This document shows positions 6,916 through 29,943 of a stretch of 29,943 bases of DNA, piece by piece. A program made the translations under genes and the position numbers. How positions within the stretch are numbered: position 1 is the stretch's first letter; the number at the start of each line of letters is the position of its first letter. Origin of the DNA: a virus (taxonomy: Duplodnaviria; Heunggongvirae; Uroviricota; Caudoviricetes); IMG/VR virus record IMGVR_UViG_2740892488_000007. The stretch is one strand, 5' to 3'. The notes below the pieces were generated by a model. The model did not search any database, had not been told where the DNA came from, and saw only the letters and a program-made list of their open reading frames with translations.

Positions 6916-7401
6916 ATGAGCTATGCAGCTAAAAAACTGCTTGACCGCTATTGGGATCGCCGACTACCTGTCGATCCGTTTAAGCTTGCTAAAGCGTGGG
7001 GTGCTCGTGTTGAAGCACTTGAGGAATCGGCTTATAACAACGATGGGTTAAGCGGTCTGGCTGTCATCAAAAAGGGTGTCCATAGGATTTATTTTGATTC
7101 TAGTGAACATTCTAATCGTCAACGTTTTACTGTTGCACACGAGTTAGGTCATCATGTGCTGGGGCATACCCAGGACGGAGAGTACCATCGGGATAATGTC
7201 GGGAATTATTCAACAGGTGCTCGTGATTACCGTGAGGTTGAAGCAAACAAGTTTGCTGCTGAGTTGTTAATGCCTGAGTCTGCTATACGTCAATTGGTAT
7301 CCAGAGAAGGTATTGATAGCACTTTGAGATTAGCAAGCATCTTTAATGTATCAGAAGCCGCTATGCATTGGCGCTTAAAGAGCTTAGGAATGGCTTATTA
7401 A
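6916..7401 (+). CDS. ImmA/IrrE-family (HEXXH) zinc metallopeptidase, standalone
   Basis: 161-aa ORF with AGGAGG RBS and ATG at 6916. HEXXH motif HELGHHVLGH and downstream EVEANKFAAELLMPE, the signature of ImmA/IrrE-type peptidases. No HTH domain in this ORF. Confidence 0.7.
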   Translation: MSYAAKKLLDRYWDRRLPVDPFKLAKAWGARVEALEESAYNNDGLSGLAVIKKGVHRIYFDSSEHSNRQRFTVAHELGHHVLGHTQDGEYHRDNVGNYSTGARDYREVEANKFAAELLMPESAIRQLVSREGIDSTLRLASIFNVSEAAMHWRLKSLGMAY

Positions 7402-7430
7402 TTAGCCTTTAACTTTTAACCTGTTTAAAA

Positions 7431-7467
7431 TCACCTTTACGTTTGTACATGTAAGGGTGATTTTTTT
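7431..7467 (+). terminator. terminator-like hairpin / attenuator directly upstream of the membrane-protein gene
   Basis: Stem TCACCTTTA (7431-7439) pairs with TAAGGGTGA (7452-7460), with one G-U wobble; 12-nt loop; then T7 (7461-7467) running straight into the ATG at 7468. The only SD-like sequence (AAGGGTGA) is inside the 3' arm of the stem. Confidence 0.5.
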
Positions 7468-8067
7468 ATGGCTGATATTGATTTATCTGGACAGTCCCCA
7501 GAGCAAGGAACCACTCCTAAGGGCGATTCAGATCCTGATATCCTTATAAGGCGAGATAGACGGGATGGTATAGAGCGTAGAAGTATGCGATTAGTGCTCT
7601 CTGCCGTTGTGCTTTGTTTTGCTTGTACATTTCTATGGCAGGGGCTTAACTTTGCTTTGGCTGTTGGAAATGGCTTGCTGGAAGCGAAAAGCAGTATTGC
7701 CGCAGCGATAACACAAAAAGTAGATACACAAACTTGTGTTTCAGCAGAAAAATGTTCTGCTTTATCTTCGGATCCGAAGATGGCTGATGAGAGGATAACA
7801 CCATCTTCAGACACTAATAAAGTTAGAAAATCTATTTCTGGTTTATCCACCGATTGGTTATCGGCCAGTTCTCTAATAGCTATTGTTGCATTCATCCTTG
7901 GTGTGGGTTTAACTTTGCTTTTGACTCTTCTTAAATCAGCATTTCAACACCCGACAGATAAAGACTTTAGAACAAAGTCGACATCTAATACTATTGAGTT
8001 GGCCACGCCAATCAGTGAATTAATAATTGGTGTTCTGAATATAATTAAAGACAAACTATCTAAGTAA
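7468..8067 (+). CDS. small membrane protein with two predicted transmembrane helices
   Basis: 199-aa ORF. Charged N-terminus, hydrophobic segment LVLSAVVLCFACTFLWQGLNFALAV, polar middle, second hydrophobic segment LIAIVAFILGVGLTLLLTLL. AT-rich codon usage unlike the phage backbone. The start may instead be the internal Met at 7585. Confidence 0.55.
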   Translation: MADIDLSGQSPEQGTTPKGDSDPDILIRRDRRDGIERRSMRLVLSAVVLCFACTFLWQGLNFALAVGNGLLEAKSSIAAAITQKVDTQTCVSAEKCSALSSDPKMADERITPSSDTNKVRKSISGLSTDWLSASSLIAIVAFILGVGLTLLLTLLKSAFQHPTDKDFRTKSTSNTIELATPISELIIGVLNIIKDKLSK

Positions 8068-8109
8068 AGCATTAGTTGTGATTTTTTATTGGTTTTAGTG
8101 ATAATACAT

Positions 8110-8142
8110 CTCCAGTACTTATTGTTACTGGAGAGTATTTTT
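8110..8142 (+). terminator. rho-independent terminator after the peptidase / membrane-protein pair
   Basis: Perfect 8-bp stem CTCCAGTA (8110-8117) / TACTGGAG (8126-8133), 8-nt loop, followed by AGTATTTTT. Confidence 0.5.
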
Positions 8143-8351
8143 AGTCGTTTTATATTTTTAATGTTAGTGAATGATATTCACGAGAGTTCACGTTCGATGT
8201 GATGTAATCGGGGGCGTTAACACCAAGAATCGCAACGAGTAATCGGCAAATTAAAGCCTGCATTTGTTGTAATATGTCATCTCCATATTGATAATTGTTA
8301 ATAGTGGTAAAGCCAAGTGGTTGACCATGAAACATAGCTTCATGAAAGTTT

Positions 8352-9092
8352 TCATTGCGGATGTTTGTAATGTTTTTTTTTGCCTGTAACCCATGATGGT
8401 CGTGGTATTCCATAAGTTTTGCAGATCCACTTCAAGCGCCTGGAGTGATTTAGAGTCTTTTCTGTACACTTGTTCTTTTCTGCCCATGTTAAAGCAAAGC
8501 AACTATCCAGTGCCATATAAAGATACTGGAATTTTTCGAAGCTAAGGTATTGTGGGTTTTGGGATAAAAATAGTGCATGCACTATTGCTGCTATATTTAT
8601 TGGTGCGTGTTTGGTTTTTGTCTCGCTAGACATGTATTTGAGTGCTAATTCTATAACCTCTTTTTCAGAGCACTTGACCAGAATAAAGTCAGTTAATTTG
8701 CTGGGTTTTATTGGGGTTGCGTCTAAAAAACCGGCATCAGTAGTTGTTAATCTTATCCCTTTGAAAAAAGACAGACACCACACAGCAAAATTGAGAGTTT
8801 CTAGTGAAGATGTATTTTTTAATTTTAGTGAGTGTGTTTTGGGTAAGCCAAATACTCGTTGGCTAAAAGGCATTGTGGATATGCCTCCATTGAGGTTATA
8901 TACTTCTTGGTTTCCTGGGTATATCCAACCGTTAATAACATTTCTGTGATTGTTTATAAGATTTGTTTTTTCCGCTAGACCGGGTAAAGTAAGTAAAGAA
9001 AAATCATCAGTTTCAACGTTAACTTCTACTGGATAGTATCCAAACTCAGCTTCAATATCATTGGATTGCTGTTCGTCAACTTTACCTTGCAT
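8352..9092 (-). CDS. hypothetical protein (hotspot cargo); frame may continue to 8150 through an A9 tract
   Basis: 246-aa ORF with ATG at 9092-9090 and GGAG RBS. No motif I recognise. AT-rich. The C-terminus ...GKKKHYKHPQ runs through A9 on the coding strand (T9 at 8373-8381 on +); with A8 the frame would continue for 73 more codons to the stop at 8150. Confidence 0.5.
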   Translation of the reverse strand: MQGKVDEQQSNDIEAEFGYYPVEVNVETDDFSLLTLPGLAEKTNLINNHRNVINGWIYPGNQEVYNLNGGISTMPFSQRVFGLPKTHSLKLKNTSSLETLNFAVWCLSFFKGIRLTTTDAGFLDATPIKPSKLTDFILVKCSEKEVIELALKYMSSETKTKHAPINIAAIVHALFLSQNPQYLSFEKFQYLYMALDSCFALTWAEKNKCTEKTLNHSRRLKWICKTYGIPRPSWVTGKKKHYKHPQ

Positions 9093-10556: not shown

Positions 10557-12328
10557 CAGTAAAACTCCAGAATGGTGGATGTCAGCGGGGTGCTGATACC
10601 GGCGGTGAGTGGCTCATTTAACAGGGCGTGCATGGTCGCCCAGGCGAGGTCGGCGTGGCTGGCTTCCTCGCTGCGGCTGGCCTCATAGGTGGCGCTGCGT
10701 CCGCTGCTGGTCATGGTCTTGCGGATAGCCATAAACGAGCTGGTGATGTCGGTGGCGCTGACGTCGTATTCCAGACAGCCACGGCGGATAACGTCTTTTG
10801 CCTTGAGCACCATTGCGGTTTTCATTTCCGGCGTGTAGCGGATATCACGCGCGGCGGGATAGAACGAGCGCACGAGCTGGAACACGCCGACACCGAGGCC
10901 GGTGGCATCAATTCCGATGTATTCGACGTTGTATTTTTCGGTGAGTTTGCGGATGGATTCAGCCTGGGTGGCAAAGTCCATGCCTTTCCACTGGTGACGC
11001 TCAAGTATTCTGAATTTGCCACCGGCCACCACCGGCGGTGCCAGCACCACGCATCCGGCGCTGTCGCCACGGTGTGACGGGTCGTAACCAATCCATACAG
11101 GGCGGGAGCCGAACGGATTGGCGGCAAACGGCGCATAGTCTTCCCATTCTTCCAGCGTATCGACCATGCAGCGTTGCAGCTCCTCGAACGGGAACACCGA
11201 CGCCTTGTCGTCAACAAATTCACACATGAACAGGTTTTTAAAATCGTCGGCGCTGTTTTCGCGTTTAAGCTGCTCAATGTCGAACAGCGTGCAGCCACCT
11301 TTCAGGGCGTCCTCAATGGTGACAATCTGCCGCCACTGGCCGTCCGCACAGAGAAGCCCACCGGCAAGGGCGTTATGACTGACGTCGATTTCCACACGTT
11401 CGGCGGCGCTGGCGCGTCCCCGGTTGAACAGTTCACCCGACCAGAACGGGTAGGCGTCGTGCGCCAGCGTGGATGGGGTGGAGAAATAGGTCGAACGCAG
11501 GTGACTCTGTGAGGCCATACCTGATGCCACCTTACGCAGTACCTGAAAATTCGGGATCCAGAAAATCTCATCGACGTACAGGTCGCCGTTATGGCTCTGT
11601 GCGGTGTTGGAGTTGGTGCCGAGAAAAATCAGTTTTGCGCCGTTATTGCCCAGGACAATCGGGTCACCGGTCAGGTCAACGTCAACCAGACGGGCAAAGG
11701 CGATGATGTATTCGCGGAACACATACGCCTGCGTTTTACTGGCCGACAGAAAAATCTGGTTATGACCGGTTTTCAGGGCGCGCAGCAGCGCCTCGCGGGA
11801 AAAATAAAACGTTGCGCCAATCTGGCGGGATTTCAGAATATCGCGGATGCGGTGCTCAAGCCCGGCGCGATACCAGTGCAGCTGATAGTCGAAAGACTGC
11901 TTAAAGAAAATCTGCTCCAGCTTTTCGATGGCCTCGTCACTGAAAAAATTCTTTTTCGGTTTGCGACGCCCGCCTTTGTTGCGGTTAGCGACGTTCGGAT
12001 TAAGGTCTGCCTCGTTGCCGGTCTGACTGTAGCGGTTGACCCGTGCCAGTCGTTCAATCTGGCGTCCGAGCAGGTCAATTTCCTTGAAGTCACCGCCGGT
12101 TTTCTGCGGTTTGATGATGAGCTGGGTCAGTCGCGCTTCCAGACTCATTTCGACACGGCTGATGGGGGCAACGCTGTCCCAGCCGTCGCGCTGTTTCCAG
12201 CTCTGCACCGTCGGGCGTTTCATCTGCAACATGGCGGCAATCTGCGGCACGGAAAACCCCTGCCAGTACAGCAGCGCCGCCTGACGACGCGGGTCGTGTA
12301 AAAGAGTGGTGTCTGTGGTGATGGTCAT
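10556..12328 (-). CDS. P: terminase large (ATPase) subunit (P2 gpP-like)
   Basis: 590 aa from ATG at 12328-12326 (the track ORF opens at a TTG at 12358). Divergent from O; length equals P2 P. Confidence 0.85.
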   Translation of the reverse strand: MTITTDTTLLHDPRRQAALLYWQGFSVPQIAAMLQMKRPTVQSWKQRDGWDSVAPISRVEMSLEARLTQLIIKPQKTGGDFKEIDLLGRQIERLARVNRYSQTGNEADLNPNVANRNKGGRRKPKKNFFSDEAIEKLEQIFFKQSFDYQLHWYRAGLEHRIRDILKSRQIGATFYFSREALLRALKTGHNQIFLSASKTQAYVFREYIIAFARLVDVDLTGDPIVLGNNGAKLIFLGTNSNTAQSHNGDLYVDEIFWIPNFQVLRKVASGMASQSHLRSTYFSTPSTLAHDAYPFWSGELFNRGRASAAERVEIDVSHNALAGGLLCADGQWRQIVTIEDALKGGCTLFDIEQLKRENSADDFKNLFMCEFVDDKASVFPFEELQRCMVDTLEEWEDYAPFAANPFGSRPVWIGYDPSHRGDSAGCVVLAPPVVAGGKFRILERHQWKGMDFATQAESIRKLTEKYNVEYIGIDATGLGVGVFQLVRSFYPAARDIRYTPEMKTAMVLKAKDVIRRGCLEYDVSATDITSSFMAIRKTMTSSGRSATYEASRSEEASHADLAWATMHALLNEPLTAGISTPLTSTILEFY

Positions 12329-26307: not shown

Positions 26308-26583
26308 ATGAACAAAGAAAATGTGATTACCCTGGACAATCCGGTCAAGCGTGGTGAGCAGGTTATCAAACAGGTCACGCTGATGAAACCTAATGCCGGG
26401 ACGCTTCGCGGTGTCAGTCTGGCTTCGGTCGCACACTCCGAAGTCGATGCACTTATTAAGGTGCTGCCGCGCATGACGGCACCGATGCTGACCGAGCAGG
26501 AAGTCGCCGCGCTGGAACTGCCTGACCTTGTGGAACTGGCCGGTAAGGTGGTCGGTTTTTTGTCGCCGAACTCGGTGCAGTGA
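26308..26583 (+). CDS. E: tail assembly chaperone E (with -1 frameshift extension E' to 26735)
   Basis: 91-aa ORF. Slippery heptamer T TTT TTG at 26556-26562 near its 3' end; the -1 frame stays open to a TAA at 26733-26735. Confidence 0.8.
   Translation: MNKENVITLDNPVKRGEQVIKQVTLMKPNAGTLRGVSLASVAHSEVDALIKVLPRMTAPMLTEQEVAALELPDLVELAGKVVGFLSPNSVQ
26556..26562 (+). other. programmed -1 ribosomal frameshift slippery site (E / E+E')
   Basis: TTTTTTG in X XXY YYZ register relative to the E frame (codons GGT TTT TTG). The -1 frame encodes a further 57 codons ending just before the T start codon. Confidence 0.65.
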
Positions 26584-26727
26584 CGTTTCCGAAAAATCTG
26601 TCGGTAGATGACCTGATGGCGGATGTGGCAGTGATATTTCACTGGCCGCCATCAGAACTGTATCCCATGAGCCTGACCGAACTCATCACATGGCGCGAAA
26701 AGGCGCTCCAGCGAAGCGGAAACACGA

Positions 26728-26838
26728 ATGAGTAACAATGTAAAATTACAGGTATTGCTCAGGGCTGTTGACCAGGCATCCCGCCCGTTTAAATCCATCC
26801 GCACAGCGAGTGCGTATTACCGTGAAGGAGATCGGTGA
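26728..26838 (+). pseudogene. T: tape-measure gene T, 5' fragment only (truncated by IS insertion)
   Basis: ATG at 26728 overlaps the E' stop region, where the tape-measure gene is expected. The ORF stops after 36 codons at 26836-26838, inside the terminal-repeat region of the adjacent IS. No tape-measure-sized ORF follows. Confidence 0.6.
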
Positions 26839-26895
26839 GTAACATCGATGGAGATCGGTTCGTGTCACTTTCACAGAACCGTTTTTAAATTACCT

Positions 26896-27645
26896 TCACT
26901 GATCTCCTTCGGTCAACGGAGATTGTATTTTCCGCATTGATTCTCCTTTAAGTTCGATCTTGATACTGCCATGAACCAGTCGATCTAGGATGGCATCCGC
27001 ATGTGTGGAGTCTCCGATCATTTTGTACCAGTTTTCCACCGGCAACTGGCTCACTACGATGATTGAGCCTCGTTGGTACATCAGATCCACTATTTCCAGC
27101 AGGTCGCTACGCTGTTCTGATGAGAGAGGTTCCAGCCCCCAGTCATCCAGAAGCAGCAGATCGCTATTATTCAGCCTGGTCAAAAGTTTGCTGTATCTTC
27201 CATCAGCATGCCCCTGATAGCACTGTTCCATCAGCGCTTTAAGGCGATAATAGTAGACCTTGTATCCCTGTCGGCAGGCATTATGACCAAGTGCACATGC
27301 CAGGAACGTTTTACCGCTGCCGGTGGCCCCGGTCAGTAAAATATTTTGTTTCAGGGTTAACCAGTTTCCCTGACTGAGTGAACGGATGAGGGCCCTGTCC
27401 AGCCCTCTATTGTTACGATAATCCAGCTTTGATAACTCAGCATTAAGTCTGAACCGTGCATGTTTGATCAGACGCTCTGCCTTCCTGTTTTCACGGCAGG
27501 TTAGTTCTTCTGCTGTCAGTAATGACAGGCGTTCTTCGAAGCCCAGCTCCTGGTATGTGCCCGGTTGAGCAAGTTGCTTTTTAAGCGCATCACGGAAGCC
27601 GGTGAGTTTAAGTGCGGTCAGTTGTTCGTAAAGATGATTCATCAT
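26896..27645 (-). CDS. istB: IS21-family helper ATPase IstB
   Basis: 249 aa with Walker A (LLTGATGSGKTF) and Walker B (LLLLDDWG); immediately downstream of the transposase gene. Confidence 0.85.
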   Translation of the reverse strand: MMNHLYEQLTALKLTGFRDALKKQLAQPGTYQELGFEERLSLLTAEELTCRENRKAERLIKHARFRLNAELSKLDYRNNRGLDRALIRSLSQGNWLTLKQNILLTGATGSGKTFLACALGHNACRQGYKVYYYRLKALMEQCYQGHADGRYSKLLTRLNNSDLLLLDDWGLEPLSSEQRSDLLEIVDLMYQRGSIIVVSQLPVENWYKMIGDSTHADAILDRLVHGSIKIELKGESMRKIQSPLTEGDQ

Positions 27646-27656
27646 TGGATCCCGTA

Positions 27657-29198
27657 TCAGTGGTAATACTCACTGCCGCGTACGTTTTCGTGTTCCATCG
27701 TGGATAACAGATCTGGTTTTGGATCCTGAACAGGTTGTTTATCCAGACCTTTTTCCAGGATCGATTTAATACCTGACAGACGCCATACCTTTGTTTTCAG
27801 AGCTCTTGCACATGCTGCATTAAGTCTGGCTTTACTGTATTTTTTATGAAGGTTCAGGAGTCCAAGGCAGAAGCGATAGCTTTGTTCCGGATGTGGACGA
27901 GAGTTCAGTATATGAAGCACATAACTATGAGTTTCACTGCCTATGTGCCCCGCCCATTCCAGAAGACGCTCTGGCGTCCAGGTGGCATGCTGTCGATGAG
28001 CTTCAGGCATGTGCTCGTTGCGGGTACTGTAGCCATAAGTACGCTTGCGCGGGTGCACAGCAACCTCCTGCCCCTGATTGAAGAGTCTTACCAGTTCTCC
28101 GGAGATCCATGCTTCCAGTTGCTGGCCTAACAGCGAACATGGAACCGAGTAGTAATGTTTGTCGATTTCCACGTGGTAATCGGCATGAACTCTGACTTTC
28201 TTCACCAGGGTGTAACTGTAACTGGCTTCAGGAAGAGGCTTCAGTGCGGGTTTATCAAGCTGGATGAAGAGTTCTGCACGTGAATAACCCAACTTCTGCA
28301 TTATTTTGTTATTCAGTCTTTCCAGCAACTCCCGAATGCGCTGATTAAGCGATGCAAGGCTGTAGAAGATCTCATGCCTGATTCGGGCCATGATCCAGCG
28401 TTCAACAACCTGAACGCCAACTTCAGCTTTGGCTTTATCTTTCGGTTTACGTGGCCGCGCAGGCAAAACTGCGACATTATAATGCTCAAGCATCTGCTGG
28501 TAGGTAGGGTTAACGTCAGGATCATACTTACATGCCCTGGATGTGGCGCTTTTCAGATTGTCCGGAACAACAAGTTCAGGAACGCCACCCAACCACTGGA
28601 AGCAGCGAACATGACTCATCACCCAGTCTTCAAGCTGCTGAGACCAGGTGGCCTCTGCCCATGTGTAACTTGATGCCCCGAGAACAGCTACGATGACCTG
28701 AGCAGTTCTTATTTCTCCGGTCTCAGGGTCGGTAACGCCAACGGTAGGTCCACAGTAATCAACGAAAAGTTTTTCGCCAGCTTTATGTACCTGACGCATT
28801 GATGGTGAAGTGGTTTTGAGCCATTCACGGTACATCCGGCAGTAATGGTTATAGCTGTAAAAACCGCCTGGATTACGCTCACAGTATTCTTCCCAGAGTA
28901 GCTGCAGCGTCACGCATTTATTACGCAGTTCCCGGTGTACTGTAGCCCAGTCAGGCAGAGAGTGCTTCTTCATCTTAACCTGGGTCTGAAGGAACGCATG
29001 TTTTAGTTTTGTATCATCCCATCCTGTAGGTAAGGGCCACTGCTTTATGCCAAGTTGAGCCGCCCGATTAGCATATCTGGATACAACGGAAGGGGAGATT
29101 GCAAGACTACGACCAATTTGTCGATGGCTGAGTCCAACACCGTATTTAAGCCTAAGAATTTCTTTAAGTTTTCTCATAGAAATTGGAACTGTTGGCAT
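27657..29198 (-). CDS. istA: IS21-family transposase IstA
   Basis: 513-aa ORF with an N-terminal HTH-like region (LSHRQIGRSLAISPSVVSRY), upstream of and co-oriented with istB; ATG at 29198-29196. Confidence 0.8.
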   Translation of the reverse strand: MPTVPISMRKLKEILRLKYGVGLSHRQIGRSLAISPSVVSRYANRAAQLGIKQWPLPTGWDDTKLKHAFLQTQVKMKKHSLPDWATVHRELRNKCVTLQLLWEEYCERNPGGFYSYNHYCRMYREWLKTTSPSMRQVHKAGEKLFVDYCGPTVGVTDPETGEIRTAQVIVAVLGASSYTWAEATWSQQLEDWVMSHVRCFQWLGGVPELVVPDNLKSATSRACKYDPDVNPTYQQMLEHYNVAVLPARPRKPKDKAKAEVGVQVVERWIMARIRHEIFYSLASLNQRIRELLERLNNKIMQKLGYSRAELFIQLDKPALKPLPEASYSYTLVKKVRVHADYHVEIDKHYYSVPCSLLGQQLEAWISGELVRLFNQGQEVAVHPRKRTYGYSTRNEHMPEAHRQHATWTPERLLEWAGHIGSETHSYVLHILNSRPHPEQSYRFCLGLLNLHKKYSKARLNAACARALKTKVWRLSGIKSILEKGLDKQPVQDPKPDLLSTMEHENVRGSEYYH

Positions 29199-29643
29199 AG
29201 GTATCCTTTACCGGAATGGCAAAAGATACAGATCAACACACCTGTGAAGTTCCAATAACATTGATGGAGATCACTGAATAACAAAATGAGTCAAAAGTGA
29301 TCTCCATCGATGTTATTCAGCGATCTGTTCAAATGTTATTACCCGATCTCGATGGAAGTTATTGAGTGATCTCCTTTCATGAAAATACGCACTGAATTGC
29401 GTAACCTTGCAGTAGCTCGAGTATTACACTGCATAGTGTGCAGGGTTATCTCCCATCGAGAAAATATCGGCGCCAGCGAATAACGTCACCTTAGATGTAG
29501 CAGTTGCCAAATAGTGACTCAAGGGCGGGCTTACCGCATACACTGACACTTAGCGGATCGACAGAATATTATTAGCAGATCATCACTGAACGCTACGTAA
29601 TTATCGTAATAAAGGCTTTTTCTGGCTACCAGGAAGACCTGAC

Positions 29644-29943
29644 ATGGCTCTGCTCTGGAACCAGGCCGCAGGAAGCATCAATCTGGAGTTTATCAGCTAC
29701 TGGAATTCCGGTGTATTGGCAGCCCCTGATAATCACCTGACCCACGAAGAGCGCTCTGCTTTGCAGAAACTCTGGGGCGGTTTGGAGACAGGAGATGTAA
29801 CGATTATAGGACGTTCTGATGAAGTCCATGATTTTACCTCCGCCTTAATTAACTGTTTTCTTTCTGAAGAAGAAATTGTCTGGTGGCAATCAGGTGGCAT
29901 TTTCCCGGATCCCTGGCCCGCTAATATATCCCGGCTGAACTGA
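29644..29943 (+). CDS. hypothetical protein (not of P2 tail-module origin)
   Basis: 99-aa ORF with AGGAAG RBS at 29631-29636 and ATG at 29644; ends with TGA at the window edge. No motif I recognise. Confidence 0.4.
   Translation: MALLWNQAAGSINLEFISYWNSGVLAAPDNHLTHEERSALQKLWGGLETGDVTIIGRSDEVHDFTSALINCFLSEEEIVWWQSGGIFPDPWPANISRLN

Follow-up and report, generated by a model that had tools for sequence, protein, structure and literature searches.

The window, a stretch of 29,943 nucleotides analysed as a whole, carries the left arm of a P2-type prophage whose tape-measure gene T is cut by a complete ISEc12 element, and the far end of that element is joined to pathogenicity island DNA. Judged by its two flanks, this ISEc12 copy is evidently a hybrid junction of two loci. 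Its best explanation is an inversion of about 374 kb between two inverted ISEc12 copies, which would have relocated the tail arm of the prophage; we regard this explanation as evenly poised between right and wrong.

Results

Identity and limits of the insertion element

The element (26811 to 29391, minus strand) is 2581 bp long. It is complete, with 100% identity to the copies at three other loci (L002, L003, and L006), and 2581 of its 2581 positions agree with copies that RefSeq/PGAP labels 'IS21-like element ISEc12 family', the labels on which the name rests. As is characteristic of the IS21 family, it has two genes, istA and then istB, which are consecutive on the minus strand with 11 nt between them in the list of open reading frames (ORFs). 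The istA gene (27657 to 29198, minus strand) encodes a DDE transposase of 513 aa, in which Pfam recognized the domains rve (2.7e-10) and Mu-transpos_C_2 (2.6e-16) and a weak N-terminal HTH; its DNA equals that of annotated copies encoding WP_001298859.1. The istB gene (26896 to 27645, minus strand) encodes an AAA+ helper ATPase with the Pfam domain IstB_IS21 (2.2e-67), and its DNA equals that of annotated copies encoding WP_001016257.1; the protein has 249 aa when counted from the first ATG, while RefSeq places the start one codon later, at 27642. Both genes are intact and the element is unmutated. In the window its ends read 5'-TGCGTATT...AATACGCA-3' and are of the TG...CA type. The termini, TGCGTATTACCGTGAAGGAGATC and, reverse-complemented, TGCGTATTTTCATGAAAGGAGATC, form imperfect terminal inverted repeats of the kind found in IS21 elements, and several repeats of a GGAGATC-type motif lie near both ends (26825-26910 and 29254-29381).

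A megablast search with positions 26700-29943 matched 3113 of 5426 complete E. coli genomes, and the features annotated under the matches were 'IS21-like element ISEc12 family transposase' and 'helper ATPase IstB'. The copy number of ISEc12 in E. coli has a median of two per genome and reaches 17; strain 21964 has six matching places. On this sequence identity, the element is evidently ISEc12 itself, which is well known in E. coli, and gene disruption by ISEc12 is likewise already known.

The limits of the element were set by local BLAST against six fetched loci, among which the three independent copies named above all stop at 26811 and 29391. A previous sequence-only reading of the window had rightly recognized an istA-istB element of the IS21 family, but its interval of 26728-29475 was too wide on both sides, because 26728-26810 belongs to a phage gene and 29392-29475 is flanking DNA. 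A right boundary at 29475 is ruled out, as independent ISEc12 copies all end at the equivalent of 29391 and 29392-29943 is contiguous island DNA. A weak inverted match between 29347-61 and 29447-61 was probably the source of that boundary.

The remnant of the tape-measure gene

To the left of the element lies the 5' remnant of a P2-type tape-measure gene T (26728 to 26810, plus strand). It comprises 27 codons plus 2 nt, and all 83 nt agree with the beginning of T in strain S14, where the same prophage has the gene intact at 2448 bp; they give 28 residues identical to the start of the 815-aa S14 tape-measure protein, so that 28 of 815 residues are present. Identification as T rests both on this identity to an annotated tape-measure gene and on position, directly after E/E+E' in the FI-FII-E-T-U-D-ogr arm. 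Peduovirus genomes match the window up to about 26811 with 97-99% DNA identity and diverge beyond. The ORF that begins with T (26728 to 26838, plus strand) has 36 codons, of which those after the T part are read from the IS end. The sequence-only reading was correct on the 36 codons and on the truncation of T by an IS21-family element; the end of the ORF, which it had put at the edge of the IS, lies inside the IS.

Nothing similar to U, D, ogr(K), or the remainder of T was detected to the right of the IS or elsewhere in the window by blastn, tblastx, or tblastn, and tblastn of the intact T protein against the window returned residues 1-28 only. When the IS was removed computationally together with 0-8 bp, T was restored in no case; the resulting ORFs did not exceed 57 aa and were not similar to T. 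Within the window, these results uphold the previous statement that no tail genes follow the IS. They also agree with the description of the prophage as structurally defective, which holds for the copy in the window, where T is cut at nt 83 and is not restored by excision. The outcome that the same reading had named as counting against it, a T gene made continuous by in-silico removal of the IS together with a target duplication, did not occur. The prophage is already T-defective from the ISEc12 insertion alone.

The right flank

The istA-proximal end of the IS is joined directly to a papX-proximal segment of a tRNA-Phe (pheU-type) pathogenicity island (29392 to 29943, plus strand), which had no match when compared with phage genomes. 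All 552 of its 552 positions are identical to strain 21964, running there from 598136 down to 597585 and hence in reverse orientation relative to the prophage. Its neighbours in that strain are papX on one side and, on the other, genes for hypothetical proteins, an OMP and a phosphoethanolamine transferase, followed by int and tRNA-Phe. The island site in strain 21964 is empty, with no ISEc12, and lies 374 kb downstream of the prophage. The segment occurs in 658 of the 5426 complete E. coli genomes. In 21964 and a few hundred other E. coli, including UTI89, NU14, and many ST131 genomes, the sequence is uninterrupted and matches it at 100%. In these genomes 29392-29475 is contiguous with 29476-29943 and is not IS, and the uninterrupted island sequence at the junction reads ...gtaaagaCTGAAttgcg. 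A 99-aa ORF with no Pfam match (29644 to 29943, plus strand) ends exactly at the end of the window; its annotation in relatives is either a hypothetical protein or a fragment of a GTP-binding/CobW-like pseudogene. In other strains, ISEc12 copies cluster in the pheU island.

Comparison with strain 21964 and sequence quality

The nearest relative of the window is strain 21964 (NZ_CM190142.1), whose positions 194927-224304 align end to end with positions 1-29391 of the window. Over these 29.4 kb the two differ by one SNP and 15 single-base indels. All 15 indels lie in A/T runs of at least six, 14 of them with the extra base in the window, and their frequency rises with run length: roughly one in four of the true 6-mers, roughly one in two of the 7-mers, and both 8-mers are affected. 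The rate of homopolymer indels in the window is about one per 2 kb, and to go by this pattern the frameshifts of the prophage are evidently sequencing errors and not pseudogenising mutations. The IS itself has a single run of six or more, too few for its homopolymer errors to betray collapse or patching of the repeat.

In strain 21964 the prophage is located between cpxP and fieF, and ISEc12 is found at the same T base with GCGAG on both sides; beyond it T continues, and U, D, ogrK, and fieF come next. T also resumes after the IS, as in a simple insertion, in strains 463 and FDAARGOS_1286. The insertion of ISEc12 into T is recent, since T is uninterrupted in the same prophage of strain S14. 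The 21964 allele is like that of the window in the prophage itself (one SNP), in the insertion point after T nt 83, and in the orientation of the IS. What differs is the sequence after the element: strain 21964 continues with GCGAG and the remainder of T, and the window with island DNA.

Target-site duplications and the two junctions

The two flanks of ISEc12 in the window do not match. On the left, the element is preceded by GCGAG (26806 to 26810), the left one of the two 5-bp target repeats generated by the insertion of ISEc12 into T; the window does not contain the right one. On the right it is followed by CTGAA (29392 to 29396), presumably a copy of the target site at which ISEc12 was inserted, or transferred a strand, into the island. 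The window copy thus lacks the target-site duplication of 4-8 bp that is characteristic of IS21 elements, whereas six other ISEc12 copies have perfect duplications of 5-8 bp (TGAAG, CTCAG, TACCAG, GCGAG, CAGTAGCT, and GAGGT). A 5-bp ISEc12 duplication has also been reported for the tssM insertion of ST131 clade C (PMC10711316). The missing duplication reflects a later rearrangement or a mis-join and is not evidence against membership in the IS21 family.

The junction on the istB side is that of a simple insertion into T, and the one on the istA side adjoins the papX-proximal island. It is because the flanks GCGAG and CTGAA differ, strain 21964 shows a simple insertion into T, and the island site is 374 kb away and inverted that we take the window to contain a hybrid junction.

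The exact right junction (IS|CTGAA) occurred in none of the 5426 complete E. coli genomes. Contigs from genome, metagenome, and viral collections, scanned for exact matches to this junction and to the predicted island|IS junction, contained neither. No genome with ISEc12 at exactly this island site was found among the complete E. coli genomes or in the contig scans, and exact look-ups of three window-specific proteins gave no match. SNPs separating ISEc12 copies, sought as a means of exposing a recombinant, were absent, the copies being identical. Strains 1EC187 and K71-77 were considered as the parent of the right junction and rejected, since their IS lies 18-26 bp further right and has its own 8-bp duplication, which marks a different event. 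The ST131-type genomes that cover 97% of the query likewise represent a different event, with the IS at 29627-32 and the duplication TACCAG.

Discussion

Proposed formation of the junction by inversion

For the inversion, the layout of the source genome, its orientations, and its distances are assumed to be those of the relative 21964. A 21964-like layout can be written as A-IS-B ... rev(D)|rev(C), in which A is the left arm of the prophage, B comprises the rest of T, U, D, and ogr, segment D is the papX side of the island site, and segment C is its tRNA side. An inversion from this layout gives A-IS-D together with the reciprocal C-IS-B, and A-IS-D is the order observed in the window. In this scheme, a second ISEc12 would have entered the island at the CTGAA site, inverted relative to the T copy, and homologous recombination between the inverted copies would then have inverted the interval of about 374 kb. 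The same topology would also result from the T copy alone, by intramolecular strand transfer in one step. A second copy at the island site is plausible because other strains have independent ISEc12 insertions in that stretch, at 18-26 bp (1EC187, K71-77) and about 240 bp (ST131-type) from the island junction of the window.

The product would read from the prophage (int...FI-FII-E-T') through ISEc12 into the island (...papX, pap operon). At the reciprocal junction, about 374 kb away, the tRNA-Phe-proximal island would be joined through ISEc12 to the remainder of T and then U, D, ogrK, and fieF. On the T side of that junction we would expect the ISEc12 end ...AATACGCA followed by GCGAGTAAGTCGCTGTCGGG, and on the island side GAACGGCAGTAAAGACTGAA followed by TGCGTATTACC. 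The prophage would be split and could neither excise nor be packaged as one unit, its right arm having been moved and not deleted.

Several considerations weigh against the inversion. The window holds only 552 bp to the right of the IS, with the reciprocal junction and the second IS copy outside its view. Neither the exact right junction nor an ISEc12 at exactly this island site was found in the complete E. coli genomes or the contig scans. The source assembly is error-prone, which makes a false join at a repeat a real prospect. Moreover, the inversion would lie within one replichore. The 374-kb interval in strain 21964 holds an rrn operon, tuf, secE-nusG, rplKAJL, rpoBC, murB, murI, and birA, and inversion would turn rrn, tuf, rplKAJL, and rpoBC head-on to replication. 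Engineered inversions have shown that such a head-on arrangement is costly but viable in E. coli, and this lowers the prior probability of the event. The fuller claim is that a clinical ExPEC lineage has undergone an intra-replichore inversion of about 374 kb, of which the junction is a true endpoint, bounded by ISEc12 copies in a P2 prophage tail gene and in the pheU pap island, with an rrn operon, tuf, rplKAJL, and rpoBC head-on and half a prophage beside the pap operon. We advance it tentatively and believe it somewhat less than we doubt it.

Other possible origins of the junction

The requirement for an unusual intra-replichore inversion of rrn and rpoBC is itself a point in favour of an assembly chimera, in which the source genome would carry an ordinary ISEc12 insertion at each site (T'-IS-rest of T and island-IS-island) and the wrong flanks would have been joined across the 2.6-kb repeat, either by the assembler or during scaffolding or gap closure. 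ISEc12 is multicopy with copies that are 100% identical, the consensus quality is low (about one homopolymer indel per 2 kb), and the junction is unique across all collections searched. Yet the contig crosses the whole IS, as it would with reads longer than the repeat, which should normally resolve 2.6 kb. We read the source as a long-read or finished assembly because the window crosses a 2.6-kb multicopy repeat and has length-dependent homopolymer errors, and reads in such an assembly usually span a repeat of this size. In addition, both halves of the window match strain 21964 at or near 100%, so that they do not come from a two-strain mixture. We consider a chimera unlikely, though a serious contender. 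A hybrid junction without a shared target duplication is equally what would be predicted if an ISEc12-bounded piece of the pheU island had been translocated or duplicated into the T copy. An excised circle might have entered by homologous recombination, or the route might have led through an IS21-type tandem or cointegrate; the arrangement would be T'-IS-island segment-IS-rest of T, with the right arm just past the segment. In the IS21 family, cointegration is driven by the reactive junctions of tandem elements, and the clustering of ISEc12 in the island could supply the bounding copies. This route, however, requires at least two more ISEc12 copies in the island, the closest relative has none at these sites, and no example was found in complete genomes; we consider it improbable.

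The sequence-only reading had offered an IS-mediated deletion or an IS-bounded rearrangement, and it is the rearrangement that fits the flanks and the layout. An adjacent deletion classically leaves a lone IS that lacks a target duplication and lies between sequences from separate places; here it would have run from the T copy to the island site and removed the rest of T, U, D, and ogr, and the window is without the remaining tail genes. The island flank in strain 21964 has the opposite orientation, however, and a deletion cannot yield the observed junction from it. Such a deletion would also remove the 374 kb that contain rrn, tuf, secE, nusG, rplKAJL, rpoBC, murB, murI, and birA, genes that are essential. 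To account for the junction, a deletion would need a prior, unobserved rearrangement or a second copy of the island module directly downstream. We consider a deletion more improbable still. Finally, a simple insertion with T resuming after the element, although it is the arrangement of strains 21964, 463, and FDAARGOS_1286, has a negligible probability in the window, where it is ruled out by the unmatched flanks (GCGAG against CTGAA) by the failed in-silico excision, whose ORFs of no more than 57 aa lack T similarity, and by the tblastn match confined to residues 1-28.

Whichever of the inversion, the IS-flanked translocation, or the assembly mis-join applies, the tail arm is kept elsewhere in the genome. 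The previous conclusion that the T/U/D/ogr arm had been lost is thus not supported, given that in strain 21964 T resumes beyond the IS, with U, D, and ogrK behind it, and that the right flank of the window lies 374 kb off and inverted in that strain. The fate of the arm cannot be read from the window itself, because the window ends 552 bp past the IS.

Implications and comparison with known systems

For annotation, our findings suggest that the prophage be reported as interrupted by ISEc12 at 26811-29391 and split at a rearrangement or mis-assembly breakpoint, and not as a case of tail-arm loss. If the inversion is true, an E. coli pathogen would have acquired head-on rrn and rpoBC naturally, in parallel to the engineered rrn inversions with which conflicts between replication and transcription are studied. 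The inversion would also be a further example of ISEc12 reshaping ExPEC genomes, beside tssM.

The gene order of the prophage follows the late arm of P2 and other Peduovirus genomes (FI-FII-E-E'-T-U-D-ogr) up to T, but T of the window stops after 83 nt and the window is without U, D, and ogr. The IS-bounded inversions described between inverted IS copies in E. coli, Shigella, and Yersinia genomes resemble the present case in their hybrid IS copies without matching duplications and in having endpoints in a prophage and a genomic island. They differ in that one endpoint is seen here, and in that the inversion proposed for the window would be intra-replichore and include rrn and rpoBC, which is less usual than an inversion symmetric about ori or ter. 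The element itself shares its istA and istB, its TG...CA ends, and the knockout of a gene by insertion with ISEc12 as annotated in RefSeq E. coli genomes and with the insertion that inactivates the type VI secretion gene tssM in ST131 clade C (PMC10711316). Whereas ISEc12 elsewhere is bounded by duplications of 5-8 bp, the copy in the window has no matching pair, and its flanks come from loci that are 374 kb apart in the nearest relative. The window thus combines a known element with a known kind of event.

Homopolymer indels and the gpE+E′ frameshift site

Alignment of the window with its nearest relative, strain 21964 (NZ_CM190142.1), revealed 15 single-base indels (6036, 6060, 6893, 8373, 9377, 9493, 9749, 9755, 10510, 12507, 18490, 20732, 22986, 24318, and 24712) and one SNP (15269), with no other differences. 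Every indel falls within an A/T run of at least six bases, the frequency of indels rises with the length of the run, and all but one of the 15 are insertions in the window relative to 21964. Among the genes that they break are the sheath, tail-fibre, and tail-fibre-assembly genes. The indels look like sequencing errors rather than decay of the prophage. Although such homopolymer errors occur elsewhere, the T6G slippery site at 26556-26562 is intact and the same as in 21964. This site serves the programmed -1 frameshift that yields gpE+E′ from E (26308-26583) and the E′ frame, which runs to 26735.

Distribution of ISEc12 insertions

P2-type tape-measure (T) genes contain three distinct, independent insertion sites of the IS21-family element ISEc12, two of them separated by only 48 bp, and a sheath gene contains one further independent insertion. 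In the papX-proximal stretch of the pheU island, three distinct ISEc12 junctions, including the window's own, lie inside 240 bp (29392-29396, 29410-29417, and 29627-29632). The remaining positions are 26758-26762 and 26806-26810 in window coordinates, 7913 in L001, and 8000 in L006, the last two being loci fetched from other E. coli genomes. Several of the target duplications end in AG. ISEc12 may thus have a target preference, either regional or by sequence. The pheU island of 21964 also carries an orphan 33-bp ISEc12 end (585755-585787; 10755-10787 of the fetched locus L010), identical to the first 33 nt of the istB side and adjoined by a partial transposase gene. This orphan end is a scar left in the island by earlier ISEc12 activity.

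Window boundaries and cargo genes

Base 1 of the window is the exact end of the integrase CDS, and base 29943 is the exact end of the stop codon of a 99-aa ORF. Given these two ends, the window looks like a prophage prediction trimmed at gene boundaries; attL and the sequence past the island ORF were removed by extraction, a contig end not necessarily being the cause.

In the window, non-P2 cargo (6916-9092) separates replication gene A from the portal gene and comprises an ImmA/IrrE M78 metallopeptidase (6916-7401; CapP-like in PADLOC, 1e-30), a 199-aa ORF (7468-8067), and a minus-strand 313-aa ORF frameshifted in the window at 8373. Neither of the latter two has a match in Pfam or PADLOC. 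The cargo, which occupies the usual variable locus of P2, may represent a module of defence or regulation that is as yet uncharacterised.
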